A stretch of 64,000 nt of DNA from Blasia pusilla (taxonomy: Eukaryota). The position numbers and the translations under genes were made by a program. Shown piece after piece: positions 32,558-64,000 of this stretch. Below the pieces are notes generated by a model. The model saw nothing but the letters and a program-made list of their open reading frames with translations, ran no database searches and had not been told where the DNA came from. Numbering within the stretch: the first letter of the stretch is position 1; each line of letters starts with the position of its first letter. The stretch lies in contig CM114271.1 of the NCBI GenBank assembly GCA_050084515.1, forward strand, positions 28,148,001 through 28,212,000. Reading direction: 5' to 3'.

Positions 32558-33859
32558 TTTAGATGTTTTTACTCAAACCTGACTTTAGAATTGATCGCTA
32601 TCTTAATCTCTTAATCACAAAATGGATTAAACTACAAAATGTTTCACTCAAACATAATCACGTAAAGTTGAATGATAGACTTTATCTAGTTCATTTTCAT
32701 AAGAGGTAAAGTGACACATCATATTTCTTTGAAAATAACTACTTCTTTTACGGAGACCTTTGTCACACCAAAAGCCTCCTTCTTCAAATAATAGCATAAG
32801 TATGCTTAATTTTCCTTGATTTTATTTTAAATTTTGTATATTCAATAGATGATAGAGTACAATAACTTGTTATAAGAAATATTAGCTATAATAATCTAAC
32901 CTAAGAAACCAACACAATTCATACAAATTTCTTATTAATTTTCTCTGATGATTTAACTAATAAATATTAACAAAGTTTATTTGTAGTTTGGTTTCTTTTC
33001 ATTTCCCAAATTCTGAAGATTTTTGGAGGACTTTTCCTGATTGTGTGGGGAAGTATAACATTCCCCCTTGCATCTCTTTCGTGAGTGATATTTTATTTGT
33101 ACTTCTAGGTAATGATTACTTGGTCTTAACTTTGTGGTGATTTTCCTCCATTTCCTTTAGGAATTTTATGCGAAAAGGGAAGAAAATGAACCAATTGGAA
33201 GCAGTTATCCAAAGAAGCATATCTCATATTCTAGGGTATATCCAAAAGTTTCACTTAGTACAACAAGTTTTTGTATATAAATTGGGATGATGACAGAGAT
33301 GTTTCTTAAAACTATAAGACTTCCCATGGAATCCCAACACAATAATCTTTGCATTGCATAGCATTTATTGACCTAATTCCATATCACCTACTTTTGTTAC
33401 TCCACTTGGGTGCTCACATGAACATAAAACATGTTACTAGTACTGATTAGTCATTCTATTTGTTAAAGTATGTGTTAAAATCTGAGCCAATAGGGTCACT
33501 AGATATTGATACACAGATTGCTAAGAATAATTCTCTTATTTAGTATTGTTAAATCACATCCACTTCACATCCGAATCTGAAATTTTATCTTCTTCTCAAG
33601 ACAAGTGGACTTATTTACATTAATGTGTACATAGGAAAATAGTACTACGCTTTGAGGATGTATATGCTCTAGTTAAGACTTATGCCATAACAAATCTCTG
33701 GGGTCAGGTACATGTAGATGAAATCCTTGCAAAAGTATTGATATCTTACAACCTGAAATTGTTGTAGATATTTCCGAAATTCTAATACAATCCACTTGAG
33801 CAGCCCTTCCTCCATCACAACCAAAATATGTCCATCCACATGAACCATAGTTGGAAACA

Positions 33860-35125
33860 TTGAATGATGAGCAATTGATGTTTTTCTCCCAACTTAAAGA
33901 CGTACGCTCTGGTCTAGTATTCCTGAAGGGTTCTCTCGGCTGTGGGAAAACTTTATTCATCAAATTCATGTATAGTTATTGGAAGGCTTCTAGTATGTGC
34001 CCACTTCTTACAGCTACAACGGATATTGCCGTTGTTCGTCTACATTCAAAGGCAACCACTATTTGTTCTACTTTGGCCATACCACTTAGAGGCAACTTGC
34101 CTAACATGCATGATGCTGTTCACAATTATATTTGGCTAAGATTATCAAAAGTAGTTGTAATAGATGAATGTTCTATGCTTACAACAAGACTTCTTCGACT
34201 GTGGTAATGCGGCCTAACTAAACCTCTCCTTTAAAGTACACAACTCCATTTGCAAATAAGCTAGTTCTATTGGTAGGAGACTTCTCTCAGATTCCTCCGA
34301 TATATAACCATCGCTCTTATCCTTTCTTTGCTAGCTGCCACATTACTTCATCTACACTATTTCACAATATGCCAACATTTCAGTTGACTACCCCTATGAG
34401 GCACAGGATCCTGATTATCTTACATTCCTCGACATTGTAAGGCAGCGAACACCTATTCCTATAGAAATTCATAGTTTCCTCTCTGAATTTTTTGTCTCTG
34501 AAGACGAGGCTATCGACTTTGTTTATTACGACACTACCATTTTATGCACTCGTGCTGAAGACGTGGATATATTTAATTTAATAACATTGAGAAGGTTGTT
34601 TAGAGATGCATGTGTAGTATCAATAAATATTATATGAGATGCACCCAACACACCTCAGTTTGCATCTTGGCTAAGTAATTCAACTATCCACCAACTACGA
34701 TTTGTTGCCATAAAATGTACTGTTATGCTCACATGCAACGTCAACTTAAAGGTTGAGGTAGCAAATGGATCCTTAGCTACAATTATTGAATTTATTTTCA
34801 TTGAAGACACAATAACTGGTATTGTACTCACCATTATGTCCAACAGCAAGTCTAATACTTTAAGTATATCAAAGTTTGAATCTCTAAGGTATGCATAAGA
34901 CCATACTTACCTTAAGAAATCTTTTCCACTTATTTTACGCTATGCTATGACAGGGCATAAAATCCAAGGCTCTACAACTATTGGTTGTTGTCTTCTAGTG
35001 ATAAATTTGTCTTTGTGTTAGTACTCTTGTATGTAATGTTATCAAGAGTAAAGAATAGAATTCAGTTAAAGATATTTGGAAACTTAAAACCTGAAGAGTT
35101 TCAAGTGTTTTCCGATTCCTCATAA
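33860..35125 (+). pseudogene. PIF1-family SF1 helicase domain of the Helitron RepHel (stops and frameshifts)
   Basis: LNDEQ, Walker A GSLGCGKT, Walker B VVVIDECSML, PFANKLVLLVGDFSQIPPI, FPLILRYAMTGHKIQG, YVMLSRVK. Confidence 0.88.
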
Positions 35126-39606: not shown

Positions 39607-39769
39607 CATTGGTAGGCCGCATTGTCTTTTCGGATTTGATCTTCCCATTCTCACGCCCCTTTCTCCCTGAACAGCTACTCGTGCCGTGCCTCACTGTGCT
39701 CAGAGGCGTCCAGGACTAGTCGCTGGAATCCTGAAGACTTGCGTTTGTGTGCGTGGATTGAGTTCGACA

Positions 39770-42700
39770 ATGGCATCTGCAGTTGGGAGCATGGCTGCAG
39801 TGAATGCTGGAGTCGCGTTGAAACAGGCCGTGCCATCATCGTCGACCTTTGTTTCTGGAAAGAATGTCCAGTCTCTTGGCTCGTCGTCGGCTTTCTCTCG
39901 TCTGTCTTTCTCTGACGTACGCAGTAGACGGAGCAAATCTGTGGCGAAGAGCGGCGCTGTCCGAACTAATGCCATGGCGAAGGACCTGTACTTCAACAAG
40001 GACGGCTCGGCCACCAAGAAAATGCAGGTAGGTGGAGCTGATTTTGTTTTCCTTGAGGCTTGCAGTTTCTTGCGGTCTTCCCTGCAACGGTAACGAGAAT
40101 CGTCACGAGAGGTACCTATGTTGTTTAGCGTACCTTGGTGGTACGCACCGGGGCTCGTGGGTCGTTGTTGGAGGTTTTGAGCTCTAGTGATGTCTGCCGC
40201 AGGCTGGAGTCGACAAATTGGCCGACTTGGTTGGAGTCACTCTCGGTCCCAAGGGTAGGAATGTCGTCCTGGAGAGCAAGTATGGATCACCTAAGATTGT
40301 CAACGATGGTGTGACGGTCGCCAAGGAGGTAAGGTGTCTTATTTAAGATTTTTTACGGTGTTCATAACATCATATTTTTCGTGCTGGAAATGCCTGCCTT
40401 GCCCTACTTTGCTGCCATTATATTCTTGTAGCGCTTTTGTGCGCCGTGATATTTCGCCGACTGCATTTTGGTGACGAAGAGGACGTGGTTGTTTGTTTCC
40501 TATAGAATGTTCCTTTGGGCATGTAAGATTCTCTTTTAGTCTTTGGCCATGTTTCCAACGTTATGAGATGTATGGTCTTCTCTTATGGATGATGTGCTAG
40601 CTATCGTCTACCTCGTAGAGTTGCACGCTTTGGGTTTATGGTTTATGCTTTTTGTTCATTCACTGTAATCTTCTGCAAGCTTTGGCTTGAATGTGGCGGC
40701 AGCAGTGTTTTCGCATTTTGTGCCGATGTGCAGAGGGCCACGCTTTCTGTTGGTAGTTCTTGGGTTGGGACTTTGCCCCGTCAGCCTGACTGTTTTTGTT
40801 GCACGCTTCCAGGTTGAGTTGGAGGATCCCGTAGAGAACATTGGTGCGAAGTTGGTTAGGCAAGCTGCCGCAAAAACTAATGACCTAGCTGGTGACGGAA
40901 CCACTACGTCTGTTGTTCTTGCGCAAGGTCTCATTGCAGAGGGTGTGAAGGTGAACTCACTTTCATATTTAACCATCTGGTTGTAGACGCTTAAGCCCTC
41001 AGCAGCTCGTTTCCTTGTATGGTTCCATTTAGAGTTTCTTATTCGTTTCAATTATGGGTCAGGCCCACTCGATGGCATCGTCTGGATAAGTCTCGAAAGC
41101 CTTTAACTTGACTGACCCTATCTAAATCCCCTCGCTTGACAGGTTGTCGCAGCCGGAGCTAACCCCATCCAAATCACCCGAGGAATCGACAAGACAATTA
41201 CTGCCCTCGTCAAGGAGTTGAAGCTCCTCTCTAAGGAAGTATGTGTTTCACGAGCTTCACACCGGGCATTCTCACATGTCTACGTTTTGTTTTTTTGAGG
41301 GAGAGATCGCTTTATCACGTTATATACTGCCGTATGTCTGACCTAATGTGTGGATATCTGGCAGGTGGAGGATAGCGAGCTGGCGGATGTTGCAGCCGTC
41401 AGTGCTGGTAACAACGAAGAAGTAGGTGCCATGATCGCAGAGGCTATGGCTAAAGTTGGGAGGAAAGGTGTAGTCACACTCGAGGAGGGTAAAAGTGCAG
41501 AAAACAGCTTGTATGTGGTCGAGGGTATGCAGTTTGACCGTGGTTACATCTCACCCTACTTCGTCACGGATCCTGAGAAGATGAACGTGGAGTATGACAA
41601 CTGCAAGGTTTGTTGTGGGATGGTCAGCTGTGGCTTAATTTTATTATTGTTTTCAGCAGCTCTGAAAGAAAGATAAGCTTGGGATTTGGATGGAATGTCG
41701 GGGAATCTGCCTTGGCTCATGAACCCCTGACATGGTCTGTGCAGTTGCTTCTGGTTGACAAGAAGATCACCACAGCACGGGACATGATTGGGATTCTAGA
41801 GGATGCGATCCGGGGTGGATATCCTCTGGTTATCATCGCGGAAGACATTGAGCAGGAAGCCCTGGCCACGCTTGTTGTTAACAAACTTCGGGGATCCCTG
41901 AAAGTTGCTGCACTTAAGGCACCTGGGTTTGGAGAGCGGAAGAGTCAGTACTTGGATGACATTGCCTGCCTCACTGCAGGTATGTGGTTTTTTTAGGGAT
42001 CTTTGGTAGCATGTCTGATAGAATTTATGTGATCTAATCATTCTGATCATAATTCTCTGTGTAAGGTTGGAGTGTTAAGATGTATGACAAGATCGGAAAG
42101 GTCTAAAGAACATGTGTGGTCCGGGTCGTGATGATCACCCCACGAACAAATTCGTTTGCTTTACCAATTCTATTGAAGTAACAGTAATTCAGCTTGGGCT
42201 TCTCGAAGTGCATGACAGTCCTCAAATGTCTGAGGGACAAAGTGGATCATTTATAATCTCACTTTTATCTGGTATGGTTTCTAGGGACTGTGGTCAGAGA
42301 TGAAATTGGCCTTTCATTGGACAAGGTTGGGAAGGAAGTTTTGGGAACTGCTGCAAAAATTGAGCTAACCAAGGACTCTACTACGATTGTTGGTGATGGA
42401 AGCACCCAAGAAGCAGTCACCAGGAGAGTTGCGCAGATTCGGAACTTGATTGAGGTAAATATTGATATGTCTTTGTTAACTTCAGTGCATGCAGAGGTAC
42501 CTGTGAATATGAAAGAAGTGGCTAATTTCATGGCGAAATTGTAAAACCTCCTCTTTCTGGTATCAATGATGTAACCCGCTCTGTGGTGTCTCTGTGAACA
42601 GAATGCCGAGCAGGAATATGAGAAGGAGAAGTTGAACGAAAGAATTGCGAAGCTTTCTGGTGGTGTGGCCATTATTCAGGTATCGTCTGTTTATGACCTA

Positions 42701-47378: not shown

Positions 47379-50300
47379 TGTAGAAAACTACTAAAGAAAT
47401 ATAACTTGTGGGATTTTATTCACACTCATACACCACCATGGAGAACAAAATTTTGCAATGAGAGAATGAGGAAAGGCTGACCCCCTTCTCAATTATATAG
47501 GGTATATATAAGAAATCCTAACATTAATTGTAACCATAGTCTCAAGTTAGACTAAGTGTCATTAACTAACCATAATTAATATAATCGTGCTTATCTAACT
47601 AACCAAGATTAAGCTTTCCTACTTTATTTGGTACTCATACAAGGAATACAAGGAATACAAGGAATTTCTCTCTGATAAAATGGTAGTGCACTTTAACATC
47701 TATGCTTTGTTCGAACATGAAACACAAGGTTATTAGCAAGCTTGATGCCACTAATATTGTGCACATATATTACATTAGATACTAAGTTACTAATACCAAT
47801 CTCAACAAGTAATCAATGAAGTCACACGGCCGCTCATGCTACATTGGTTGTTCTTTTGTATTCATGCTTTGTTCAAGATAAAGTAACTGTAGGTTGCTTC
47901 TTAGAAGCCTAACTTATAACTTCAATTTCCAAGGTAAATGAGGAATCAAATATGGAATGTCTATCATACATGCTTCCTGTCCAATCAACATCTATGAATC
48001 CTTGTACGTGTAAAATCGGAGAAAGTTCAAATTGAAGCCCGAATTGAAAAGAGAATTTCACATACGCATAATCCTCCTTAGAGCATCAAGGTGAGGTTTT
48101 CAAGATGCTTGCATAAATTGGATCACTAGACCAATTGCATAGCTTAAGTCTGACTAGATTATAGTCAGATAGACCAAACTTCTAACCATGCGTTTATAAA
48201 TATTATAATTTGTAAGCATCTCTCCTTCATCCACTCTTAGCTTCATACTCTTCATACTCTTGTCCAACGGTGTAGAGATTGGCTTACAAGTCATCATACC
48301 ATATTTTGAAAGCATATAAAGAGCAGATTATCGTTATAATAACCACATGCTCTTTCCAACCATGATAAACTCTACACCAAGGAAGTGCTTGAGTTCTCCA
48401 AAGTCATTCATATAAACTTCTACATATAACTTTAGCTTGACTTATTGTACTATATCCTCAGTACTCCCAATAATCAAGAGGTTTTCAACATACAACATAA
48501 TGATAATCGTATGCTATTTTCCTCTCAAGATATAAAATAAGAAGGTAGAATCACATACCCTAAAGCCCAACTCTTGTAGGACATATATAATCTTGCCATA
48601 CCAAGCTTTTTGAGCTTGTTTGAGCCCGTATAAAGCTTTCTTTAACCTGCATACGCGGAATGGAAACTCTTGATGCTCATATCCATGTGGTTGAATCATA
48701 TATACCTCCTCTTATAGATCTCAATTCTAGAAGGAATTTTTGATGTCCATGCGATGTAACCTTCACTTCTTACTTACTAAAACTCTTTTCGTAGTTGCCA
48801 TCTTTGCAACATGGCTAAATATCACCTCATAATCGATGCTATATAATTGTGCATAGCCCTTTGGAAACCAATGTGTGTTTGTATTTGTTCCTATATCAAC
48901 TTGATTACGCTCAACTTTGTGAATCCATTTACAACCAATAGCTTCCTTACTGAAGGTATTTCAACCAACTCCCAGGTTTGTTGATATCTTAATACAACAA
49001 GCTCTTCTTCCATAGCTTTAATCCATTGGACCTTACTTGCAGCTTCTTCAAAACAACTCAACTTCTGTTCTTGAAGAATAGTCATCATATATGCATAATG
49101 TGTTGCAAGGAATCCTTCATTTATGAATCTATGAATAGGATGTGTGACTCTACTCTGATCTACGAAGTTTTTTAGAGGTGTATGAATCTAACATCTGACT
49201 CGAGCTCTAACTAGTGTCAACACACTAAATACCTACTCTTTTCGACTATGGACTAAAAAATTTAACTAAAGAATCTAGAACCTCTTCTTATCCTACGCTA
49301 GTACTTGGGGAATTTATATGCAATTTCTATTGGTTTATAGTCATATTCTCCCCTCAACACACAAGTTTAGAGGTGGAATAGGCTCAGGTGGAACATACCA
49401 TAACTTAATCTCATCAAAGAAAACATTATGACTAGTAATAAGCTGATTAGAGGATAGAATGTAGCACTTTTACCCCTTAGTTTCATCATCGTAGCCTATG
49501 AAGATACATCTTTCATATTTGGGGTCTAGTTTCTAACCTCTTTCAGAAGGAACATGAGCATAACAAATACAACCAAATACGTTCAGGAATGAAAAATTAG
49601 GTTTAGTTCCTATGAAGATTTTGAATGGAGTCTTATCATGAACTCATACTATTGGAGGTAGCTTGATTAAGAAGACTACGCACCCTAAAATCTCTGCCCA
49701 ATACACCTTAGGTAAGTTCTTATCATTCAGCGTGACACGTGCTGCCTCAATAATATATCGATTCTTCCTCTCAGCCACTCCATTTTTTTGTGGAGTGCAA
49801 CAGCTAGTCACTTGTCTTTGGATGCTATTATGATATAACTAGTTATTAGACTATGTTGAAAGGTACTCTCCTCCTCCATTACAACGCAATCTGAGAGTGT
49901 GTTCTCCAATCTACTTCTTTACAAGAATTCTGAATATTTGAAACATTAAGGATATCTTTGACTGGATTTGAGAAAGTATACCCATATATACCTAGAGAAG
50001 TCATCAATAAATGAAATAAAGTACTAACAACCACTAAGATTATGTTGTGATGTTGTTCACACATCAATATGAGTCAATTCCAATATCTTGGATGCTCTTC
50101 TACCCTGCTTTGGAATGAAAATATAGCTTATTTTCCAAATTGGGAAGCAGGGCATATCTCTAGTACATTAGAATTGGCTAATTTATGAAGTCTTACTATT
50201 AGATTAGATGATGAAAGAGTGTGTAATTTTTCAAGATTGATATGCCCAATTCTCTTATGCTGCACATTTAGATTTGTGATTTTTTGGCTAGTTTGACCAT

Positions 50301-52524
50301 ACATTAATGTTTGAATCTCTAGCATAGAAATATCTAATTTGAAAATTTATGGAGATCAAGTTCATTTGGCTATCATATTATGGTCATCTATTATTTCAAT
50401 GAAACAACCGTATGTGTTAAACTTCACTTGATAACCCTATTCAACTTTTTATCATAGAGAGTTCAAATTTCTTGTTCTCTATGTTCTCTATTGTAGGAAC
50501 ATAGAGAACATCTCCAAGAGCACAAAGATTATCTGATGCTATTGGAACTTTATCGATATGCGCGATATGATGTTGAGTATAATCTCTTGTGAGCACTATT
50601 GTAGGATCTTTCGCCGACTTCATATTACTGAACCATTAAGCTTGTGAGCTCATATGATTCCATGCACCAAAATCAATGGAATCGAGTCTTTCTTGACCAT
50701 TGTTCCCATATGATGAATCATAATAAAAAGTTGCTCAGTTTGTAAATGTTGTTGTTAATACTATCCTTGGTAATGTTGCTCTATATAACTTTGTTGTTGT
50801 AAGGCTTATGTTCTGATATCTGCCTTCCTCTTGAAGCAAAACTTTGCATAGTGATCCTTAATCCCACACTAATTGCAAGATCCAAGGATCCTCTGTTGAT
50901 GATCTCGATCCCAATAATTTCCACCATCACCACCTTGTGATTGTGTCTGGTACTCGTTCGTAGTTGATTGATTGAAGTTATGTTGAGTGCCTCTTCCTCC
51001 ATATGCTTGTTATCCACCACAGAAGCTTCTACCACGACTTTTATCTCTGTTTGATCAATTACCTCCAAATAGCGAACTCTCTTGCATACTAAACAAGCTA
51101 CTGCTACCTACTAGGCGTATCTCTTCACTAATTAACAGTGGAACTCAAAAGACTTGTAATCCTTTGGAAGACCTTGAAGAGAGAATAAAATGAGATCATC
51201 ATCTTCTATTGTTACTTCTATTCAACTCATCAACAATATGTCTGATACTCAAAATATAATGATTGATGTTTTGCGATCCTTTCCTCACTTTGTTTAATTG
51301 TTGTGGAAAACTTGAAATTACGTTCTTGTGAGTAAAATTGTTCTTCATGGAGTATTCTTAGACAATAATCATAGATGAGAAGCTAGATAAGCAATATTAC
51401 AATGTTTGGAAGTTTTGTATGAGATAATTTCTCATGGGTCACGAAGTATGGGAGCTTGTTATAGATGATGAGGTCAAACCAAAAGATGACTCAACAGACT
51501 TGAATGTTTGGGCTTGAAACAAAAGTGCAAGGCAAGTAATCCGCTTGATCAGTTCGCCAATGATTGGTCACATTCAAGATGTTGATACTCTGAAGGAAGC
51601 TTGGGATGTATTAGAAAAAATATTTCAATTGAAGCTTTCATGAATTTAATTTTGCTTATCTAGCGTCTCATTTGAGATTGCTATTGAGAAGAACTCCATG
51701 AAGAATGATTTTACTCACAAGAACGTAATTTCAGGTTTTCCACTACTCCAATTGAAGCATAGACCACTCCTAAATAGAAATTGACTTGAAATTTACCAAA
51801 ATTGATTAAAGATATAGAAGAACATGTCGAAATTGGCATGTAGAGAGCAAATTGCACAACTTTCCTTCACTAATTGCACTTTCCTACATTGAAATTGTTG
51901 TTGCAGGAGCTCAGAATGTCGAAATTGAGTGATTTTGGATGATTTGGAAAGCTCTCACCGACCATTTCAAGATGGTGAGAACTAGAATCCAACATAATTT
52001 TGTGTGATGCAGACCTAGATTTCTAAATCAACCGGAAAAACCATAAAAATTGCCTCCAAAGTTTTGTCATCATGAAAGCTCGGGCTGAAATCTTCTTTCA
52101 TGGAGATCTCCATGAAATTTCCTTCTCCCCTACTTTGATTATGCCTTCTCTTTCCTATGTTCTCTCCTCAAACACCAAGAATTTCAATCGATGTTCTCCT
52201 ATCGCTATGATATCATATAGGAAACTGCTAAAGAAGCATAATTGGTGGAATACGACTCTCACATTTACACACCACCATGGAGAACAAAATTTTCCATTGA
52301 GTGAATGAGTGGAGGCTGATTCCCTTCTCAATTATATAGGGTGTGAACAAAAACCCTAACCCTAATCGTAACCATCATCTCGAGTTAGACTATTTGTGAT
52401 TAACAAGCCCTACTTCAGATAATCGTGCTTAACTTACTAACCAAGATTAACCTTTTTTCTTTCGTGTGAGTATCAAATATAGCAGTTCTGATGTCAGATG
52501 AACTTGAGTATATCTCAGATTTCA
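47379..52524 (-). mobile_element. decayed near-full-length Ty1/copia LTR retrotransposon
   Basis: Direct-repeat LTRs at ~47379-47640 and 52216-52524 (shared CACCACCATGGAGAACAAAATTTT...CCCCTTCTCAATTATATAGGG). Degenerate tRNA-Met PBS at 52204-52215 (plus GCTATGATATCA vs GCTCTGATACCA). Minus-strand gag, protease (DFGAWNHM), GAG-pre-integrase (HKRIGHIN), integrase, RT (RLKKALYGLKQAQKAWY) and RNase H (ASKKQPTV) in copia order. No convincing TSD. Confidence 0.9.
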
Positions 52525-55138
52525 TGAGGAAGGAGATGTTTTGAGCTTGAGTACATCCGCGTAGGCTGGAGTCGCGGATGGGTTGCAGATCAGGAGATTG
52601 GGGGCAAGTATGCATGAGGGAAGCCAAAAAATAGACTCAAAACCCAGCTCTGTGCCCCCAATCTCTTCCCCCCCTCTTGCCGAGATCCGTAGAGGGGAGC
52701 AAGAGTGTGACACGGATCAAGAGGTTTGCATTTGGACTTTTTCTGTGTGAAAACTTAGTGTAGAGTGAGTTAGGATTAGGATGAATGAATCTCGATGTTA
52801 TGGTGTATAGCTCTCTATACCTATTGTGGGATACCATCCTAATGTGATATCAAATTTGAGAGGAGAATCAAAGTTCTGGGATGAAGTATGTTCCATAAAG
52901 AGTGACTACTCTAAAATTACACTCATGAGTACAATTTTATAGAGATAGTATAATACTTGGTGGGATGATCATCCCACAAGGTATTATTCTACCTTTGTTA
53001 GAAATTTGGGGTTAACTATTCGAGTATTCTATATTTTTTAGAGCGTGAAATTGTTGAAATGTGAAATTTCCGAAGTGTGAAGGTTTTAGTTTGAGAACTC
53101 ATAGGTGAAATTTGGAGATCGAACTTAGAATCCTGAAATGTTGTCTAGAAGTGCAAAAATTATTCTAAGTTGTGCTTGGATTTCTCATTTAAATTCTGAC
53201 ATTGTGGGTCTTAGTCGCAAGTATCGTTAGTGACCATGTTGGGGTGCTATAATACTTTGAATTCAAATTAACTATATGGATAATAGTACTTTCGAATGCA
53301 ATTTTTCCACTTGGCGGCAACTAATTTGAAATGGAATTCTCCCCACATGGTATTATAATACCTTCACTAGAAATGTTGCTTGTAAATCTGGGTCATGCAA
53401 TCTCCAAAATCTTTAATTTTTGAAGTGTGCAACTGCTGAAGGTCTTAGCTTGAGAATTTAGGGTCAAATTTAATCATTTCATAAATCTTTCACAAAATCT
53501 TGAAATGTTGCTTGGAAATAAAATTCTTCATAAATTTGTGCATCTCTCATTAATCTTCTATCCTTTGAATTTGGCCTTCCATGAGTATCAATGTTTATTA
53601 TTCAATTATTATTATTATTATTTATTTTCCACGAGGAGCTTCTTTGGGCGATGGCTTTTGAGAGATGACAACTAATCATAGGCCAAACAAATTTTGGCGA
53701 GTGGATAATATTATCAATCTCTTCTTAAAAATTGCTTTCAAACATGGAAGGAATGTGTGTTTGAATATTCTATACACAAACAAGTCATGAATAAACCACA
53801 ATCTAATGTCATATTATCTTTTCTTTCCGAAATTTTTTTTGCTTTCAGATTGCAAGCAGATATCTTATTTGATCGATACCTAATGGTAGGCCAATCCGAC
53901 CAATAGTGTAGGGATTAAGAGCTTCTCTTGAACAAATATCTTGGGCAATAAAAGCTAATAAAAGGGCACACAATTTAATATTATTGGTGTTTTGTCTAGC
54001 TAAAGTCTTGTAAAACATTGAAGGAATCTATTTAAGGATTTTTTTTATAAAAGTGGTGATGAACAAACCAAAATCCAAGATCATATTCTTCTTTCAATTT
54101 TTGAATGCCAACCACGTCTTAGATCGATTAGGCTGGTATTCTGGCAAGAGAGAGTAAGAGAGGAGAGGAAGAGAGGAAGAGAGGAGAGTCTCTCTTCAAA
54201 AAAAAGGGCCAAATCCGCCTCCTCTCTTCAAAACTTTTTGACATATTTGAAATTTTTGTTTGCTTTCAAATTTAGGAAATCTTTAGAAGAGAGTAGGTAG
54301 TGGTCCACATTTGGCCCTAAAAAAACCTCCTCTTTCGTGGGGGCGAGAAAAAAGGAGACATCATAAGACCACCCTAAACATTTTTCCATCACTGTTCATG
54401 TGAGCCTAAGTTTCTTAACATTCCCTGTATCGGTCAACAAAAAGCAGTGCCCTTGGTATTTTTGTTGGAGGACCACCCGGATGGGTACCTCTCTTTTTGC
54501 AGGGATTGTTGCCTGCATCATGGCCTCCCCTAAATTGCCCCATAACCAACTTTCTGTCGGTTATGAATGGTGTCTGCTCAAGACCAACTTTCTGAAATGT
54601 GAAAAAAATCATATCCTAAGGCTCAAAAACCGAGAAGCTGCACCCCTCCCAACCCGTAAGAAAGCTCACTATAAGAAACGAAAGATTTTTAGAAGTGATT
54701 TTCTTCCACCCTGCACCCACGACGATCTAACGGGTTGGGAATCCGAAATGGCAATTCGACAGGTAGTAGGAATCTTGCACATCTTAGACAAGAAAAGAAG
54801 CCTACAACTGGTTGGACGAATGAAGGGGAACGAGCCAAAAGTCAAGAAGCCCGCCACAATGCGTCAGAAGTTGGTCTCACCGGAATAGAGTCCGATCACT
54901 CAAGGAGTCAACCTGTCGGAATCCGAGAGGTTTCCTGGAAATGGTTAAAAAGTTGCAGTGGGCAAAAAACAAAAAGTCGGAATCATACGGGTTGCAGAAT
55001 TGCAATTCTGAGTAGCTAAAAGAACACAATCCACAAGTCCAAAAACATATTCCAGAAAAGTTTTACAAACACCATTATGGGTTGAAAAAATCTTGTCTTT
55101 TATTACCTCCAAAGGAACCTCGGAAATGTACATTGAAC

Positions 55139-55420
55139 CTAGTCTATGATTTCTTCAGCCTCGTCATCTATAAATTTACTCCTAACTCTCCTCGGTGATG
55201 AGTACCAAAGGAATGTCTTGGGATTCAAGTGGCTCCTCCGGCGGTTGTAGACGGGATCGAAAATGTTGGCGGTCGAGAGCCTTGGCCCCCTAGGTACACC
55301 ATAACGGTCCCATGTAACTGTCTCGAGTCCCACCGCCTTCCTCGGCAAAGATACCTTGTACGCGCTCGAAATGTGACACCCATCCAAAGATATCAATATC
55401 CGCTCCGCCCCGGTAATACC
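55139..55420 (-). other. coding-like segment (small third gene or terminal exon) of unknown function
   Basis: Open frame ending ...NPKTFLWYSSPRRVRSKFIDDEAEEIID*, preceded by a candidate acceptor (TGCCATAG) next to the palindrome repeats. Confidence 0.3.
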
Positions 55421-56489
55421 ACTATGGCAACCGACGGTAGAAGGAATCCAACACGTCGAGAAGAAAAGAAGCCTACGCCGCTTTACGAGTTGAGGGAAGG
55501 TGCCAAGGAAGAAGCCCGCCAGATCGCTCGATCCGAAAGGGTCCGATCGGCAACTGTCGGAATCAGATAGGTTGCCTGGAGGTGGTAAAAGGGTCCGATG
55601 GTCAAAAAGCGAAAAGTTGCAAGGAGGATAAATCCGACGGGTTGCAGTGGTCATAAAGTGAAAATTGCAAGCAGGAGAAATCCGACGGGTTGAAAAGTAG
55701 AAGACCGTGGAGTACATAGACGATCACATTCGAAAAGACAAAATGATTAGCAAACATTTACAAGCACCACCATCGATCGAAAAAATCTTCTGCTTTATAT
55801 TATCCGAAAAAAGCTCGAATCAGACATTTGATCTATTCTATGAAATCTTTTGCCAAATTATCAAAAAACTCCCTACTCCAAACGCTGCAGTCAAGCTGGG
55901 TCGTTGAGTTCTTTGAACTCACTCGTCATCGTCCGAGAGCTCTTGCAAAATCACTTTCGGCCTTGCCCTCCCGATTTTGGGAATCGTTGGAAGTGACGAT
56001 GGAGTCACTACCAAGGGTGGCTCTCGAACCGGAGCTCTCGGCCGTGGAGAGTTGTACGCCCCAACGAGCCTTTCAGATTCGCCTTTTCCTCCTTGCAAAG
56101 GTCAAACAGTTCTCGCCTTCCCTCGAGGGCAGAATGTTTCTGCCACTCTGCCAGCGCCTCGATACTCGCCCCGAAAGGCCCACTAAGTCAAACACCAAGT
56201 CACCCGGCCTTGAGCAGAGCTCGATGAGCGTTTACATCGTGGTGGCGACTTTTCCTTCCTCCCGAAGTATGGGGTATGTCTTGCATGTAAATTCCGGGGA
56301 ATTGTACAAACTATCTAAAATTTGCACCCATCGAGCATGGATCCACAGGATCCTCGGATCTTGAACACTGGAAATTGTGCTCGGGCGAACGGGCAAAGAC
56401 ACGAGGGAGTGGTCCATCTGAAAATCAGACGAAACAATGTCGAAACTAAAGAAGTCGCCTTGAGAAGATTTTCAATAATCGACTTTGGA

Positions 56490-56855
56490 TCAACTCGCCG
56501 GAGTCCGACGGGTTGTTTTATCCGGACCAACCCGCCGGAACCCGACGGGTTGCGCTTGCTTTTGGTTTTCCAAGTTGATTTTGGTTTTGGATGCAACCCG
56601 TCGGAAGGCGACGGGTTGTCGCTCAGACCGCCCATGCTCGCTTTGAGAGCAACCCGCCCGATAGCAACCTGTCGCTATTAGACGGGTTGCATCCAAAACA
56701 AAATCAACCGCAACACGCCGGGTTCGACGGGTTGCGTACACCGCGTTTTCCTGTGTATGTGGGAAAGATGCAACCCGTCGGAAACCGACGGGTTGCTCTC
56801 ACCGAGCATGGGTCGCTCTAAGCCAAAGAACCCGTCGCCTTCCGACGGGTTGCTC
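56490..56855. repeat. array of 25-bp palindromes in a cargo-gene intron
   Basis: About 8 copies of CAACCCG(T/C)CGGA-N-(T/A/C)CCGACGGGTTG, e.g. at 56528 and 56771. Confidence 0.9.
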
Positions 56856-58959
56856 ACGGACAAAAAAAACCCAGATTGACTCATTCTACACATCATTATA
56901 AGATAATTGAAATTATTGTACAGGAATTGAGCCTTACCCGAATTTGACTCGTCGCGGATCGGAGTGGGTACTCGTTTTTGATGATCCACGACAGCCGCCC
57001 TCCACTTTAGCGACCTCTTGACGCGATCGGAGGTTGAAGAGCTCGTCCCTGCTCCCTCCAAATCAACACCAAGAAGCAGCCCCTGTCACTTAGATAGGCG
57101 TCTGCAAAGGAGAACAAAAGTGCAATGTGGTCATAAGTGAGCGGCAGATTCCACTCAGGTACCTCGTCCGCCGGATTTTTGCCCCAAAGTCGCAACTCCG
57201 AGGGCAGATCGGCGATCAAGAGATCCACCGCAACCTCTTCCACCACTCCATTCACCGTCCAGGCAACGTGCACGTTTGGTTGGAGCTTCCGTCCCAGCGT
57301 GGTCAATTTTTTGATGGTAGTTGTCGACGCTTGAGAATCAAGTCGTTCGGCTCATCCAAGAAAGAGGTGAATCAAGGAGGACGCTTGTCCGGGTGGTTGT
57401 TTGTCTGTGTCTTCCCAAGGATGATGGGCTGTATTCTCCTTGGGACAACCCGGGCACCTCTCGCTTCCGCTTCTCCCTAGTATGGGGACGGCTTGTCGGG
57501 GTTTCTATGACCTCGGATTCTGGTGGCGTTTTCTTCGCCGAGGACCTGGTCCGACCCTCTCTCTCTGCTCGTCCGGACGATTCCGCCTCTGGCCTCTCAT
57601 CTTCAGGCTCTCTTTGGGAAGTCTCGGCCTCTGAATTTTTCCCTCCCCTCGCCTTGCCTTTGAGACCATTTGTGGATTTGTCTTTGGCTGTCCAGGACCT
57701 TGAAGCCAACTCACTGTTCTTGTGGGCTCGCTTCTTCAGCATCTCCTCCGAAGAAGTCTTCAGGCTGGACGAAATTGGGGATGTCGTCTTGTCCTGAGGC
57801 CACTGCATCATGAAGCACTCGTAAGTCCTTATCCGTGATGTCTTCAGGGTCGTTGAAGTCGAGCCAAATGGGGCAATTCTCCACCTCCCAATCCGACATG
57901 TGCTGACCCATCTCCACGTGTACATGGAGAATGTCTCTACATCCGCGGCGAAGCCCACAATTTCAAGGTCGCCGGTAATTTTCCCCACGATCTGCGTTCT
58001 TACATCGGACGAGGTACCGAATACCATCCGTTGGCGCAGCTTTTAGTCGAACATTATCGGCCGTCGCTCTGTAGATCTCGCTTCTTCTTCGCTTGATCCC
58101 GTTTGTTACCCTCTACTTCTTCGTCAAGCTCGCCGAGGGAGGACGCAAACCTTGAACATGGTCTTGAATCCAGGGTTCTTGGTTGGCTTGTCCCGGATGT
58201 CGCCGAGCCAAACCTCGTAATCTCCGAACTTTCAAGGTTTGCTTCCGCGAAATGGGCTCTAATCTTCCGAGCTCCGCTTTGCATCCCCAAAGACGGACTT
58301 CCCGATTACCGCAACGCGCCCCTAACGACCATTCGCGTAGCCAATGCGAGATCATCGGATCGGACACACCGAGGATGGTGTGCCGCCCTCTTCCGGGCCT
58401 CTCGAGCCTCGAGATCGATTTTCATCATCGTATCCTCCGAACTCGCTATAATCCCGGATAACGCAAAACGATGCACGCAATCCAGCGACACTTTCTCCCC
58501 AATCCGACCATGCGGATCTTCATCCTCTTCCGCCGACGCTTGATAATCTCCTTGAGCTCCTTGTAGAACTCCCGGACCAAGTTGGGGTTGAGAATGCTTG
58601 ATGTATCGCTGCATCTTGCTCGCCGTGTATTTCGTTGCAATAGATAAAGCACTTGATGAATTTGGCGCTCAGACGCAGATACCTTCTCCCTCCGCTCGCT
58701 CCGCCCCAGCAACGCTTTTCTTCGCGGCCCTGTATCTTCGACCAGCAAAGGATGGTTACGGTTGCATCTTGAGAAATAAACTTGTTTGCCCAAGTTTTCT
58801 TCTTAACTGAGCACCCTTTGCAAGCATCTCGATTGATGAGGGCATCGCCCAAGAACCCCAAGACTCTCTGGGTGCGCCCTAAGCACCTTCCTCACCCGAT
58901 CGCGATCCTGGATCCAATGGTGGGTGACATTCCCTTCCGATACAATCCGCACATCCAAA

Positions 58960-59770
58960 CTCAACCCGTCAGGAAATTACATGGGTTCCTCGCGAACCCG
59001 CCGGACTCGACGGGTCGCCACTTCAGGGTCGGATTCTAGCAACAAGCTAAATGATGCAACTGTCGAGTCCGACGGTTTGCATTCAGATTTGCTAATGCAG
59101 TAAGCAATTTCGTCGGACTCGGCGGGTTCCGGATCGCGACGCCGGATGTTTTTTAAGATTGCAACTCGTCGGACTCCGACGACTTGTTTGATTGAACATA
59201 GATTTAACTAGTTTTGGCCCAAAGCAAACCGCCGGAGTCCGATAGGTCGCTTGTGAGGTTGTTTTTAAGAATGCAACTCGTCGGACTCGACGAGTTGCTC
59301 GAGTGATTGTAGGTTTAGAAGGTTTTTTCCTAAAGCAACCCGCCGGAGTCCGACGGGTTGCTTGCCTCGGCTATTTTCCCCATATCAACCCGCCGGAGTC
59401 CGACGGGTTGATTTCGCCAAAAATTTCAAGGCAAGCAACTCGTCGGCTCCGGACGGGTTGCTTTGGGGCAAAAACCTTCTAAACCTGCAATCACTCGAGC
59501 AACTTGTCGGAGTCCGACGAGTTGCACTCTTCAAAAAACATCCTCACAAGGCGGCCTGTCGAGCAACCTGTCGGACTCCGACGGTTTGCTTTGGGCCAAA
59601 AACTAGTTAAATCTATGTTCCATCAAACAAGTCGCCGAGTCCGACGAGTTGCAATCTTAAAAACATCCGAAAAGCGTGTTCTAGCAACCCGCCGGAGTCC
59701 GACGAGTTGCTTTTCGCTAAACAAACCTAACCCATTCATCAATCGAGCAACTCGCCGGAGTCCGACGAAA
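58960..59770. repeat. palindrome array containing a ~530-bp inverted repeat, in a cargo-gene intron
   Basis: About 15 motif copies; arms 59143-59368 and 59428-59669 are reverse complements centred on the palindrome at ~59385-59411. Confidence 0.9.
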
Positions 59771-61230
59771 GGCGTAAAGTGTTAAAGATACTCACGTGTT
59801 CATGGCATGCATTGCCATCTCCACCGTCACCATGTGATGAGGGTATGGGTAAAGGACCACTGCCTTCACGCAAAAATGTGCCTCCAATGAGTTGGGGCGC
59901 TCCTCCGCAAACTTGGTCCACGCCATGAACCGTGATTTCCATCCCGGATGAAGAAATGCGATTCCTCATCCGGCTGAATTTCGTGCCCTCAACTTGCCTT
60001 TCAAGTCCTGGTCTCGCATCCTCCGAATGTGTCAAGATTTTCCAAGTCCTCCTCGGTAACAGAGCTTGGGTTCCATGCTCGCCGTAAAAGGCTGAACATA
60101 GAAGGGAGGAAAGTCTGTCCACGAGGATGTTGTCGCCGCCGATTTTTTAGCTTTTTGCGATGTCCTCGTCTTGATCAGATTTTGCGGACGTATTCCATTG
60201 TCCTTAATCGCACAAAGTGGAATCTCGGGCGTTAGGCCCTCCATGAGTGCCATCCGCTTTACCACTGTCAAAACCGGGACAAGAGGAATAAGCTACACTG
60301 AAATCCCAATGAATTGCAATTCACATAATTAAAAACCTAACCTCATTACCCGCCGAAAATGGAGTCGGTTTCTTGACCAAACTAACTTGTTCGAGACAGG
60401 GTGGCAAATCGACCGGGAACTCGTCGATCCGATAGAGGTCGATGTCCTCCGCCGGGCTTGGAGTCGAGAATGACCGCTCTCCGGCTTCTTCGCCATGTCC
60501 ATCATCTCCACGGGCGCGGTCCTCATGACCTCGTCGTCATCGATTTGAATTGGTGTTGTTTCCACTATGTTGATTGTGTCCCCGACTTCGTGGGGGGACA
60601 TTTCCGCATCTCAACACTTGCGGTTGGACGGGCTGGGCTATCGCCAATGGCTATCGCTTTTTCCCGCCCGCTTTAGCCGATTCTCGCCTCCTCACCGACG
60701 GCCCGGCGCTTCTTTTTCTCTCTTTTCGCCGGCGATCCTTTTCTTCAAGGCCTGTGATGTCTCGGCCTCTTCGCTCGTTTATCTAGCGCCGCTTGAACAC
60801 GCCTCTGAAGCACTTGGTTGTGCATCTCCGCTTCCCTTTCCCGCCTCGATTTCCTCGCTGCCTAATTTCATTCGCCTTAACGAGGCCCAGGAGAAGCCGA
60901 CGCAGAGTCCTAATGGACTTGGGAGTGAAGCTCCCACTTGTTGGCTTGTGTTTTTTCCTCGTCATTTTTGCCGGAAATGCCTCCACCTATGCCCACGACA
61001 AATCCCTTGATCGTTGCCTTTTGATGTCGAGATGGGAGCTCGTCTCGCCTTGATGGTTAGCTCGATCGTCCCTATATCGCTCGGTCGAACGCCTCGCCTC
61101 GTTCCCTCGCTATCGACTCGCGATGTGTCGCGCGCGTGAAATGCCCCTTCAGATCGATCGGGCCTGCGGGAGAGTGAGGAGTGAGGAATGAAGATCGCGA
61201 AATGAGAAACCGGAAATGAGCGATTTCTGC

Positions 61231-61240
61231 CCTATTTATA
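61231..61240 (-). promoter_or_regulatory. TATA box for the ParB-MTase gene
   Basis: TATAAATAGG on the minus strand, followed by a pyrimidine-rich leader. Confidence 0.5.
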
Positions 61241-61319
61241 CTTTTCTAGCCGTTGGGCTGACCGTTGGGCGTCGCCCTTTCGACGCGCGTGTCGAATGTT
61301 ACGGAAGTCCGGACGTGAA

Positions 61320-62040
61320 AAATCGCAACCCGCCGGAGTCCGACAGTTGCGCCTCGCCATCCTGGGCACGTCGCCACGTGCGCGAGCAACCCGTCGGAGA
61401 CCGACGGGTTGAGCGCCTCCATCGTCTTCGGAAAAGAACGCGAGGTACCCGCGCAACCCGTCGGAGACCGACATGTTGCGTGCCTCCGCCATCCTGCGAA
61501 CGTCGCCACGTGCGCGAGCAACCCGTGGGAGACCGACGGGTTGAGCGCCTCCGTCGTCTTCAGAAAACAACGCGAGGTACCCGCGCAAGCCGTCGGAGAC
61601 CGACATGTTGCGCACCTCCGCCGTGTTTGGGACGGGAACGGGACGTATTTTGGGCAATCCGTCGGAGACTGTTGGGTTGCACGCTTCCCTCATCAAGGGT
61701 TAGGAACGATGGCTTCCCGTGCAAGTCGTCGGAGTATGGCTGGCTGCACCACAAGGCGACGCCCTTGCGCAACCTGTTGGACGGCGACGGGTTGCATGCC
61801 TCATCGTCTTTGGGCTAAAAGGCGAGGCACCCGCGGAACTCGTCGGGAATAGACGGTTTGCACGCCTTTGACATCTTCGAGCAAGAAGGAGCGGTATCCC
61901 AGCAAGTCGTCGGAGAGCGACGGATTGCTCGCTTCGACAATGTTTAGCAGAAGCGTGCAACCCGTCCGATGCCGACGGGTTGCGTGCTTCGTAAGTAAGC
62001 CGGGTAATTTCGAGTTACCAAGGACTCCGACGGGTTTCAA
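61320..62040. repeat. palindrome array with a 133-bp tandem duplication between the divergent genes
   Basis: About 12 motif copies at ~60-67-bp spacing; ~61355-61487 is duplicated at ~61488-61620. Confidence 0.85.
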
Positions 62041-62191
62041 GTGATGCGCAACCCTCTGCTTCCCAAATCTGGTAACATATTGCAACACAATTGAATGTGT
62101 TACAAAATTGGATCCATTGTGTCAGACAATCTCCCCCACCGAATTCATCTTGTCAGTAAAAATCTGTCAGGAGTATCTATTTCCTATTCAC

Positions 62192-62246
62192 TATAAATTA
62201 AATATTCTCATTCTCATTCTCATTCTCATTCTCATTCTCATTCTCC
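62192..62246 (+). promoter_or_regulatory. TATA box and (ATTCTC)n leader for the transposase gene
   Basis: TATAAAT at 62192, then about 7 tandem ATTCTC units. Confidence 0.5.
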
Positions 62247-62435
62247 TCCCGTAGGAATCTTCTTGGAATGGATAATTATGTTAAGCTCACTTGTGGCACT
62301 CATCTGGCGGCCCTTCCTCAATCAGAAATCATCCGACCCCAAGCTCGTGAGTCTTTCGTAGCAGTGGATGAAAATTTTCTGTCTGTTTGATTTCTTCTTC
62401 AAATTGGAACCATCTTTGTATCCAAAGATGTTAGG

Positions 62436-64000
62436 GTGGAAGGTACGGAAGACATAATAGGTAAGACGGTCCAGCCAGTGACCTTGGACCGTAAAGTATG
62501 GAATCTCCTACCTATCGCAAATGGTCAATACAGAGTTTACGGCCTGCCCCTGAATTCATCTGTTTCCCAAGTAGACGGTCTAGAATTTCCTAGTGCTCCG
62601 AGCTCTACGTTTGCAACTCCAAGCTCTGCAGATCCGGCTTCGACTCCAACTTTGCACACTCGTAACAATGTTGTTCTTCCTGAAGAGATTCCGGATGTTA
62701 TCAACCTCAGCGGATTTGTCGGACACCAATCGGGCCCTATGTCCGCCTACTCGTTCCTCTTGTGATTATCAGGCAATAGTTTGCTCGTCTCTGCCCTTGA
62801 AAATGTTCAAGCACATTCTTGTCGATTTAGCCGCCACCCCGCATTTACGATGGTAATTGCATTTTTGAGTTGCCTCCACTTGTCGCTGCTCCTGCTCAAA
62901 AGAAGGATGGAGGCGCTGAAGGGTATGGGATGTAAAGTCTGATTGTCATCGATGGTGCAGGCTTCAACGGACAAAGTGCTTCCATCCCGATGGTCCTTGG
63001 ATTGTCTCCCGCCGCCAATGCGTGGGAGCCTTGGAGTGTAGAAGTCCAAAGCATGCCCGTATCTAGAGCGCAACGGGCGAGTCAATACGCCATAATTCCC
63101 CCAAGAATGCAGAAACTCCATACGAGGTGGGTGCCACAATACGCCGGGAGGCCATCGATGTCCTCATTGTCGCACGCCTTCGTTGGAGCGTGTCCCTGCA
63201 TACATATTTTTCATTGTCCATGACTTGGGCTCCACGCCGAGTATACAAGGTCGGGCGGTTCATGTTGGCTCCCACACTCATCCCGTGACCGATGCAATTC
63301 AAAGACACATCAAGGAGGATGTGGCGAAGAAAGTAGCCGAGGTCTTTGAAACTCTCCGGGTTCAAAGCCTGGGGTGATCAAGCTCACAACGGCATCACAA
63401 ATTTGTGAACAATTGCTTGGAATCCCTGGATAGGGCGAGATCACGCCGGTTGAGGAGAAACAACTCTAGGAAAATCTCGCATTTCTCGCTGATCCTGAAT
63501 GCTTCTGGAATTTGCTACGCCGATACTGAGTTCGATGGAAAGACGGCCGAAATGGATGCCATCGCGTAATCAAGGCCAACTCCAGATTTCCATTCATTCA
63601 GAGATGGCGTTCATGGGCCAAGGAGGCGAGGGATCCAGGGCCTATGTCTTCAAAATGTCAACCACAGGTTCCTCGAGTGGCCTTGATCTTATAGATCGAA
63701 TGAGGGAAGGGAAAGATCTTTACGGGAGCTGGGTCAGCTTTGATATTTGCTCAGAGTCTTTGAACGGATGGTTGACGATGGGTGCTCACGTTTATGACCA
63801 TGTGGAGAAGGGACTCAAAACTATATTTGTGTGTGAAGTAAAGCGTAAGATGTTGGCGGTTTGAAGATGTCTTTGGATACTCTTATTGGAGGTGGTGAAG
63901 GAAAACAAAAGGCCACCTCCGGAAATTTATGGGTTCATGGCGGATAATGCACAACCTGGGTGGATTGCTATCCGGGAAGTGTTGGGTGGAGAGGTTCAAC
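62436..64000 (+). pseudogene. Mutator-like (MULE) DDE transposase, disrupted as assembled and truncated by the window end
   Basis: Cys/His motifs (CVGALEC, HVGSHTHPV), then YVFKMS...GLDLIDRM...WVSFD...WLTMGAHVYD...IFVCEVK and YGFMADNAQPGWIAIREV. The FD and MAD acidic motifs fit the first two MULE catalytic aspartates; the family assignment is from memory. Confidence 0.6.

Follow-up and report, generated by a model that had tools for sequence, protein, structure and literature searches.

Genes directed at the element's own chromatin are known from only a few eukaryotic DNA transposons, namely the VANDAL elements with VANC, KDZ elements that bear TET/JBP genes and the Plavaka cassette of red algae. 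The VANC proteins are the anti-silencing proteins of the VANDAL Mutator-like elements (MULEs) of Arabidopsis. To these systems can be compared a locus of Blasia pusilla that lies in a 64,000-nt window (the whole stretch of DNA analysed; GenBank assembly GCA_050084515.1, contig CM114271.1, positions 28,148,001 to 28,212,000 of the forward strand). The window ends in what is read here, with a probability of roughly 0.6, as a dead copy of a large transposon of the Mutator superfamily, which carries an accessory gene with a non-catalytic pseudo-methylase kept for binding. The host is a non-seed land plant, and the nearest named relatives of both proteins of the element are found in liverworts.

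The closest known analogue, set beside this locus by description, is formed by the red-algal Plavaka, Mutator and Zisupton elements with PAG2 and PAG3 (bioRxiv 10.1101/2025.02.11.637652). The giant Plavaka of Bostrychia has three accessory genes, of which PAG2 combines an N6-adenine methylase domain with a SET domain and PAG3 combines a ParB-like domain with a 2-oxoglutarate (2OG) oxygenase (bioRxiv 10.1101/2025.02.11.637652). Tandem inverted repeats adjoin PAG3 and are proposed as the binding sites of the ParB-like protein, relatives are present on Mutator and Zisupton elements, and VANC is also named in the same preprint (bioRxiv 10.1101/2025.02.11.637652). Fusions of ParB with N6_N4 methylases are described as frequent in phages and prophages (PMC12704722, PMC4738411). 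In the bryophyte Marchantia, the sperm proteins MpDN4MT1a/b are N4-cytosine methyltransferases of demonstrated activity, in which the TSPPY motif is intact (bioRxiv 10.1101/2021.02.12.428880). DIRS1 retrotransposons carry inactive methylase domains with substituted catalytic residues, for which a non-catalytic role is proposed (PMC4738411). According to a further preprint, streptophytes lack retrotransposon-borne adenine methylases of prokaryote-like type (bioRxiv 10.64898/2026.05.21.726589). A full-text literature search, which did not cover subscription journals, Repbase reports or supplements, returned no account of a Mutator-like family of land plants that carries a gene such as the one described here.

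The methylase-like domain of the accessory protein

The accessory gene is found on the minus strand at approximately 56076-60150, is decayed and contains introns. An exhaustive phmmer search, for which a 152-residue read-through piece of its product was used as the query, returned six proteins at E≤1e-3. Four of these were kept, all of them hypothetical proteins: 488 aa from Riccia sorocarpa (2.6e-9), 305 aa from Riccia fluitans (1.9e-7), 104 aa from a JGI metagenome and 176 aa from Logan (P0004, P0006, P0007 and P0008, with P0004 and P0006 being the Riccia proteins). A 4866-aa tandem-repeat protein from a nematode, matched in 30 weak stretches (P0003), and a bacterial HYR/Ig adhesin (P0005) were dropped as spurious. 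The shared core reads IDLLIxD[LIV]P....LW..N....VP.WN......F.FA.A.L.D.GC.LV, followed by W.I.N.YP.R..T.Q, and has eight invariant columns, among them the D and the P of the motif-IV position. A word-indexed protein search found nothing new among longer proteins with the exon as the query and, with the family alignment A1, only P0004 and P0008, both of which were already in the query; metagenome scans with the window exon and P0007 detected no relatives. By tblastn, the Riccia proteins also align to a frameshifted region of the window at 57759-58653, so that conservation extends over most of the gene. For this region and for its Riccia relatives no Pfam match was obtained.

As judged by profile comparison, the C-terminal domain is derived from a beta-class (N6_N4-type) amino-methyltransferase in which motif IV precedes motif I, a relationship that had been proposed from the letters of the DNA and that the present comparisons bear out. 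The PF01555 reference set consisted of E. coli YhdJ and its IMG/VR relatives, a sample of which was verified as PF01555 with Pfam. Against 24 PF01555 proteins, the family alignment A2 (five sequences, effective sequence number (Neff) of 2.7) has an hhalign probability of 80.3% (E 1.4e-5, score 38.8, 73 columns), and against a 33-sequence PF01555 alignment the family reaches 90.2% (E 1.5e-6, 101 columns). In this register, DLLIxDLP lies on DLIitDPPY, A.L.D.GC.LV on rvLk.gG... and W.I.N on vW.K. Controls for the score of 38.8 stay at 19.6 (reversed alignment) and at no more than 15.7 (30 column shuffles). The downstream exon at 56076-56453, used as a single sequence, aligns over 29 columns to profile positions 203-231 (KP..L..LI..S.PGD.VLDPF.GSG) with a score of 28.0, to be compared with 15.3 for the reversed sequence and with a mean of 12.7 (standard deviation 2.7, maximum 22.1) for 100 shuffles. 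Among 91 natural open reading frames (ORFs) of at least 60 aa from 54000-64000, the motif-IV exon stands out with a score of 26.1, the next best being 16.2. When a plain PF01555 hidden Markov model (HMM) is used instead, the family members and both exons occupy the top seven places of 326 targets in a single register. The order of the two parts is the circularly permuted one, with the motif-IV exon on profile columns 27-127 and the downstream exon on 203-231. Finally, among the ESM-Atlas look-alikes of residues 365-488 of P0004, methyltransferase families (UPF0020, MTS and N6_N4_Mtase) are among the nearest by features and account for 10 of 10 by structure, all of them under the bar that the Atlas sets for naming a family.

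Several results weigh against a methylase origin, and some of them would be expected if the resemblance were a convergent or accidental strand-loop-helix pattern in an unrelated, undescribed fold. No Pfam model, ParB_N and N6_N4_Mtase included, matches any piece or homologue; specifically, PF01555 gives no match at E≤1 to 10 for the window fragments, the read-through pieces P0001 and P0002, or P0004, P0006, P0007 and P0008, and a Pfam search with ten window fragments and two read-through pieces returned nothing relevant. No methylase was matched in PHROGs with the window fragments, and the family profile recovers no methylase from the PDB sequences, its one return there being a designed repeat protein (E 0.8). 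The AlphaFold models, one of P0004 with alignment A1 and one of alignment A2, have mean predicted local distance difference test (pLDDT) scores of 42.3 and 38.4, are unusable and offer no confident fold. The match of the downstream exon to the PF01555 profile has an hhalign probability of 29% and comes from one decayed sequence, in which motif I reads FDLVGLSG (VGLSG, not xGxG). In addition, both Riccia models stop exactly at the GT donor of the window exon and the C-terminal half is absent from them; the Riccia gene models probably lack the last exon. The small size of the alignment and the Atlas scores point in the same direction as these failures of curated models and solved-structure sequences. 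Convergence is nevertheless considered quite improbable, as two separate exons fit two collinear parts of the PF01555 profile, both score far above the shuffled, reversed and natural-ORF controls, and a single register is shared by four independent family members when aligned to the methylase HMM.

In all five aligned members, the catalytic tetrad (DLPS, DLPT, DLPK, DIPN and DVPE) contains neither the Pro-Pro pair nor an aromatic residue. This loss of (D/S)PP(Y/F) in 5/5 members makes catalysis doubtful, and a non-catalytic pseudo-methylase is therefore most likely. The sequence-only reading had instead suggested a prokaryotic-type fusion of ParB with an active methyltransferase, which would write N4-methylcytosine or N6-methyladenine (4mC/6mA) on the element as a marking or anti-silencing system. 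In agreement with such a fusion are the order of motif IV and motif I with the similarity to PF01555, the DGNH(R)FMAW stretch, which is in frame in most copies, the abundance of ParB-N6_N4 fusions in phages (PMC12704722) and the functional N4-cytosine methylase of PF01555 type in the liverwort Marchantia (bioRxiv 10.1101/2021.02.12.428880). The tetrad is, however, D-[LIV]-P-x in 5/5 members, whereas the active Marchantia enzymes keep TSPPY. Neither of the two domains is matched by Pfam, and no ParB similarity was obtained in the tests that were run. Element-encoded 4mC/6mA marking is thus very unlikely given the state of the tetrad, and the reading preferred here is that of a domain retained for binding.

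Transposase, copy number and decay of the element

The gene that lies head-to-head with the accessory gene, at a distance of approximately 2 kb, encodes a divergent Mutator-like transposase. In tblastn, 63571-63996 is 46% identical to P0009 over 142 aa (E 3e-33), with weaker pieces from 63147 onward, and 62831-63066 was matched to P0009 and P0014 by eye only. Nine transposase homologues were found (best 2.9e-31), one of which is from the liverwort Calypogeia fissa. These matches uphold the head-to-head MULE-like transposase of the sequence-only reading. By eye, VSFD... and GFMADNA... fit the first two catalytic aspartates of MULEs. Among the Atlas clusters for the transposase core, all of the listed named ones are MULE or ZSWIM (scores of 0.87-0.94), which is taken as a lead only. 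Pfam MULE (PF10551) and Transposase_mut have no match at E≤0.1 in six homologues, including proteins of 660 and 1050 aa, and the C-terminus of the 1050-residue homologue P0014 contains a weak SWIM finger (E 0.015, 15.3 bits, cut-off 19.6). Relative to the window copy, the reads of the family show indels at 62841-63751.

To follow the family, one genomic run (X14) and three RNA runs with the same species label were mapped on 48000-64000 at a likeness of at least 85%. Genomic depth is approximately 0.5 over 52806-53873, rises to 417-828 over 53874-62417 and reaches approximately 1200-1278 over 62418-64000. The element family is therefore put at roughly one thousand copies or fragments; the single-copy baseline behind this figure comes from two bins only. 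The G+C content is 0.44-0.56 from approximately 54000 to the window end, compared with 0.31-0.48 in the remainder of the window, and rises to 0.52-0.56 within the element. Loose ends are seen in 368 reads at 54131, with a mutual agreement of 0.36; these poorly agreeing ends place the left repeat boundary there, and the right end lies beyond the window. Of 74,221 mapped DNA reads, 611 have a likeness of at least 99%, 11,096 lie at 95-99%, 31,878 at 90-95% and 30,636 below 90%. As this spread falls mostly below 95%, the family is old. The earlier view of a plant DNA transposon with a Mutator-like transposase and a divergent, intron-containing accessory gene is supported. Upstream of the element, 48000-52800 belongs to a different repeat family with a DNA depth of approximately 140-370, and many reads have inverted ("opposite strands") joints at 51304/51618. 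Positions 62204-62245, which separate the transposase gene from the palindrome array, contain a perfect (ATTCTC)7 microsatellite, at which reads seem to be cut.

In the accessory gene of the window copy, the minus-strand ORF at 59866-59988 ends in ...HFFIRDGNH, and the ORF at 59792-59965, one frame over, reads ...RFMAWTKFAEERP. The ORF at 57007-57351 reads ...VDLLIADLPSELRLWGKNPADEVPEWNLPLTYDHIALLFSFADAYLSDRGCFLVLI and that at 56073-56231 reads TLIELCSRPGDLVFDLVGLSGRVSRRWQSGRNILPSRE. In-frame TAA codons are present at 57007-57009 and 56232-56234, and both open frames run on through them. The peptide fragments of the sequence-only reading are thus found where it had placed them on the minus strand, with the exception of "EKS", in place of which the upstream residues are ...YPILREEGKVATTM followed by an in-frame TAA. 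A frameshift near 59931, which had also been proposed, is borne out by an extra base behind this position in 720/1142 DNA reads, which restores DGNH-R-FMAW in a single frame; it is not due to a missing C, as the Arg codon is AGG and arises from the extra base. At 60086, 722/858 reads have 2 nt fewer, and at the TAA of 56232-56234 an A>G change at 56234 gives CAA in 951/966 DNA reads and 64/64 RNA reads. The window copy is a dead, decayed member, and most copies are without its stop and frameshift.

The accessory gene might also not belong to the transposon, being either a captured host gene or fragment, as in Pack-MULEs, or another repeat beside the transposase. Capture of host genes by MULEs is known (PMC6431247). 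The depth of the transposase part (approximately 1200) is nearly twice that of the accessory gene (approximately 700), and many copies may lack the accessory gene, which tells against the preferred reading. Each Riccia homologue is a singleton cluster on a single contig, the word-indexed search yielded no further paralogues, and, to be set on the same side, the Riccia proteins could possibly be host genes and not transposon genes. This alternative is judged unlikely. One palindrome family in the introns, between the genes and toward the left end ties the parts into a unit, the depth over 54132-62400 is even and roughly thousand-fold, and most copies keep the frame at three sites that are broken in the window copy. 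Moreover, few annotated paralogues are to be expected because gene prediction usually masks transposon genes.

Strand-specific, low-level transcription of family members is observed over both genes. Over 56010-56543, the RNA depth with the first mate on the plus strand is 10.1, 7.0 and 10.1 in the three runs and 0.7, 0.1 and 0.5 in the other orientation. Over 63486-64000, depths with the first mate on the minus strand are 2.7, 5.0 and 7.4, with 0.8, 1.4 and 1.5 in the other orientation. Such an opposite bias is what low-level transcription of two divergent genes would produce. As the majority of RNA reads fall below 95% likeness to the window copy, they come from other copies. With regard to the spliceosomal-type introns seen in the sequence-only reading, the GT...AG borders and a dip in RNA depth argue for them: depth is approximately 9 over 56010-56543 and drops to approximately 0.5 over 56544-57077, a bin covering most of the 56454-56934 intron. 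On the other side, no RNA splice joint is present among the 15 joints listed, a list dominated by the DNA run. On the minus strand at 54942-56009, RNA depth is 4-7 with the strand bias of the accessory gene, extending approximately 1.1 kb beyond its stop, and well-supported loose ends in the RNA region are found at 55242, 55286, 55318 and 55910. A long 3' untranslated region could account for this transcribed stretch, as could additional exons or expressed copies of a different structure. ORF 55139-55723, the other ORFs in 54367-55723 and the antisense ORFs have no Pfam match.

Palindrome arrays, the ParB-like motif and a proposed role

The element contains a 25-bp palindrome with perfect arms, CAACCCGTCGG-NNN-CCGACGGGTTG, which occurs 18 times at ≤3 mismatches, with 0 occurrences expected by chance. 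All 18 lie within 56491-61982 and none elsewhere in the 64 kb; more degenerate copies raise the family to 23, with degenerate relatives toward the left end. The palindromes form arrays of 50-132-bp units, which lie between the two genes and within two of the accessory-gene introns; as single strands they adopt hairpins (z-scores from -5.4 to -7.6). These arrays are assigned to the element because the DNA depth there is like that of the remaining element.

Upstream in the accessory protein, a by-eye likeness to the ParB N-domain is seen in ...EEDLENL...G...IQP....HFFIRDGNHR...A, and in the DNA reads most copies keep the DGNH(R) stretch in frame. DGNH(R) is a candidate for the box II arginine motif of the ParB/Srx fold (GxxR / DGxHR in a strand-loop-helix context). 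In searches of the fragments against Pfam, PHROGs and the PDB sequences, ParB_N (PF02195) has no match, a result of low power, as the frameshift splits the motif. A profile of three plasmid ParB_N proteins, aligned to the N-terminal region of the window gene, gives a score of -2.2 and an hhalign probability of 0.4%. These tests have weak power, given that the motif is split by the frameshift, that no homologue spans the exon and that there is no reference set of DGxHR type. Among the candidates for a ParB reference set, 14 phage records lack PF02195. Going by the length and product name in their annotation, with no ParB domain scan, two plasmid and four phage methylase genes are not ParB fusions, and eight IMG/VR reference methylases (Pfam, E≤0.001) contain N6_N4_Mtase and no ParB_N. 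The ParB/Srx assignment of the sequence-only reading thus finds no support past one short motif, Pfam, PHROGs, PDB and the plasmid ParB_N profile all being negative. A ParB-like domain in the accessory protein is accordingly kept as a lead, drawn from DGNH(R) and from the frame that is restored in most copies, and the lack of a formal match has to be held against the preferred reading.

From N- to C-terminus, the accessory protein would then consist of a candidate ParB/Srx-like DGNHR region, a conserved domain of approximately 300 residues that belongs to no known family, a basic charged linker and a Rossmann-type methylase-derived domain. Read by eye, the basic clusters of the linker may represent a nuclear-localisation signal. 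The pseudo-methylase would be kept to bind DNA, and possibly S-adenosylmethionine or a host factor, rather than to mark the DNA of the element. The protein is proposed to act in cis on the element, for which the palindrome arrays in its own introns and in the promoter region would be candidate binding sites, and it may help transposition or counter silencing by the host.

A more specific version, for which the analogy to red algae is the guide and which is rather doubtful, regards the protein as a land-plant counterpart of the PAG cassette in one polypeptide. Here, the ParB-like module would sit on the palindromes as ParB does on parS, and the dead methylase would hold on to DNA or else tie up S-adenosylmethionine or a methylase of the host, thereby shielding the approximately thousand copies from silencing or tethering excised elements. 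If true, a eukaryotic transposon would here recognise itself by means of a system assembled from parts of prokaryotic partition and restriction-modification.

Features of the window and comparison with known systems

The features of the element are collected in Table 1.

Table 1 Features of the Blasia pusilla element in the 64,000-nt window.
Feature	Position	Strand	Basis and remarks
Decayed copy of a high-copy DNA transposon family (left end to window edge)	54132-64000		Read depth, loose ends, G+C
Left subterminal region: degenerate half-palindromes and a 48-bp tandem repeat	54899-55692		Repeat families D2, D13, D15
Last coding exon, C-terminal half of the methylase-like domain (...YPILREEGKVATTM, stop, TLIELCSRPGDLVFDLVGLSG...GRNILPSRE)	56076-56453	-	TAA at 56232-56234; hhalign against PF01555
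GT...AG intron with five palindrome copies (56491-56852)	56454-56934	-	Borders ...CAAATTCGG/gtaagg and ttttcag/ATGGAC, read from the sequence
Exon, N-terminal half of the methylase-like domain (VDLLIADLPS ... ADAYLSDRGCFLVLI ... LSWIIKNEYPLRS)	56935-57288	-	Homologues and hhalign; in-frame TAA at 57007-57009
Charged, low-complexity linker with KRKR-type basic clusters	57338-57700	-	ORF 57338-58042
Frameshifted coding region that matches the Riccia proteins over their N-terminal two-thirds (ILNPNL, VHRFAL, NCPIWLDF)	57711-58653	-	tblastn of P0004 and P0006; no known domain
Probable intron full of palindrome array, units of ~50-128 bp	58990-59790	-	GTGAGT donor after ...HAMN at ~59796
Upstream coding stretch that holds the ParB-like FFIRDGNH(R)FMAW motif	59798-60147	-	Broken at 59931 and 60086; two stops
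Palindrome array, 67/132-bp units, between the divergent genes	61320-61990		Repeat search
Divergent Mutator-like DDE transposase, N-terminal two-thirds	62831-64000	+	Many frameshifts, one stop; runs off the window

Outside the element, the C-terminal dimerisation region of a hAT transposase enters from the left edge at 3-587 on the plus strand (Dimer_Tnp_hAT, E 2.2e-4, exactly at the cut-off), and a PIF1-like/AAA_30 helicase fragment at 33851-34207, also on the plus strand (E 4e-8 and 1.6e-8), may belong to an element of Helitron type. Exons of a HEAT-repeat, importin-like host gene are found at 10228-12011 on the minus strand (HEAT_EZ, E 1.7e-11). At 39671-42000 on the plus strand, a chaperonin-60-like gene is seen by eye, and two ORFs there have no Pfam match. 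The air-metagenome runs X8, X9, X11 and X12 share 0.08-0.14 of the words of the stretch, which is no evidence of habitat.

If the preferred reading is correct, the family would carry the theme of chromatin helpers to land plants of bryophyte grade. Another contribution would be an amino-methylase domain of bacterial type that is kept in hundreds of copies, and across genera, after loss of the catalytic tetrad; such retention would suggest that methylase folds can serve transposons through binding. For annotation, the family serves as a warning, as no curated model recognises either protein of the element.

With the Plavaka cassette, the Blasia element shares a large, high-copy and mostly degenerate DNA transposon, accessory genes beside a DDE transposase, tandem arrays of inverted repeats, which in Plavaka adjoin the ParB-like gene, and low transcript levels. 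In Plavaka, methylase-SET and ParB-oxygenase are found in two genes, whereas in the Blasia element both motifs would lie in one protein, without SET or oxygenase; the host there is a red alga, whereas here it is a land plant and the catalytic motif is lost. VANC is not known to have a methylase-like or ParB-like domain. What the accessory protein would share with VANC is a MULE accessory gene proposed to act on the repeated motifs of its own element, a likeness of speculated function. With the PF01555 enzymes of prokaryotes and phages, the shared features are the order of motif IV, the KP..L..LI helix and motif I, and a profile-profile probability of 80-90%. Unlike the prokaryotic enzymes, the Blasia domain has no Pfam match, reads D-[LIV]-P-x, is interrupted by introns and is separated from the putative ParB motif by approximately 350 extra residues. 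Like DIRS1, the element has a methyltransferase-derived domain with substituted catalytic residues on mobile DNA; DIRS1 differs in that its methylase is PCIF1-like (group 2), its carrier is a tyrosine-recombinase retrotransposon and the domain lies inside a polyprotein. Finally, the Blasia family and MpDN4MT1 have in common a prokaryote-type amino-methyltransferase domain in a bryophyte lineage. By description, the two are set apart: the MpDN4MT1 proteins are encoded by host genes and contain TSPPY, whereas the Blasia family is borne by a transposon and is without this motif.

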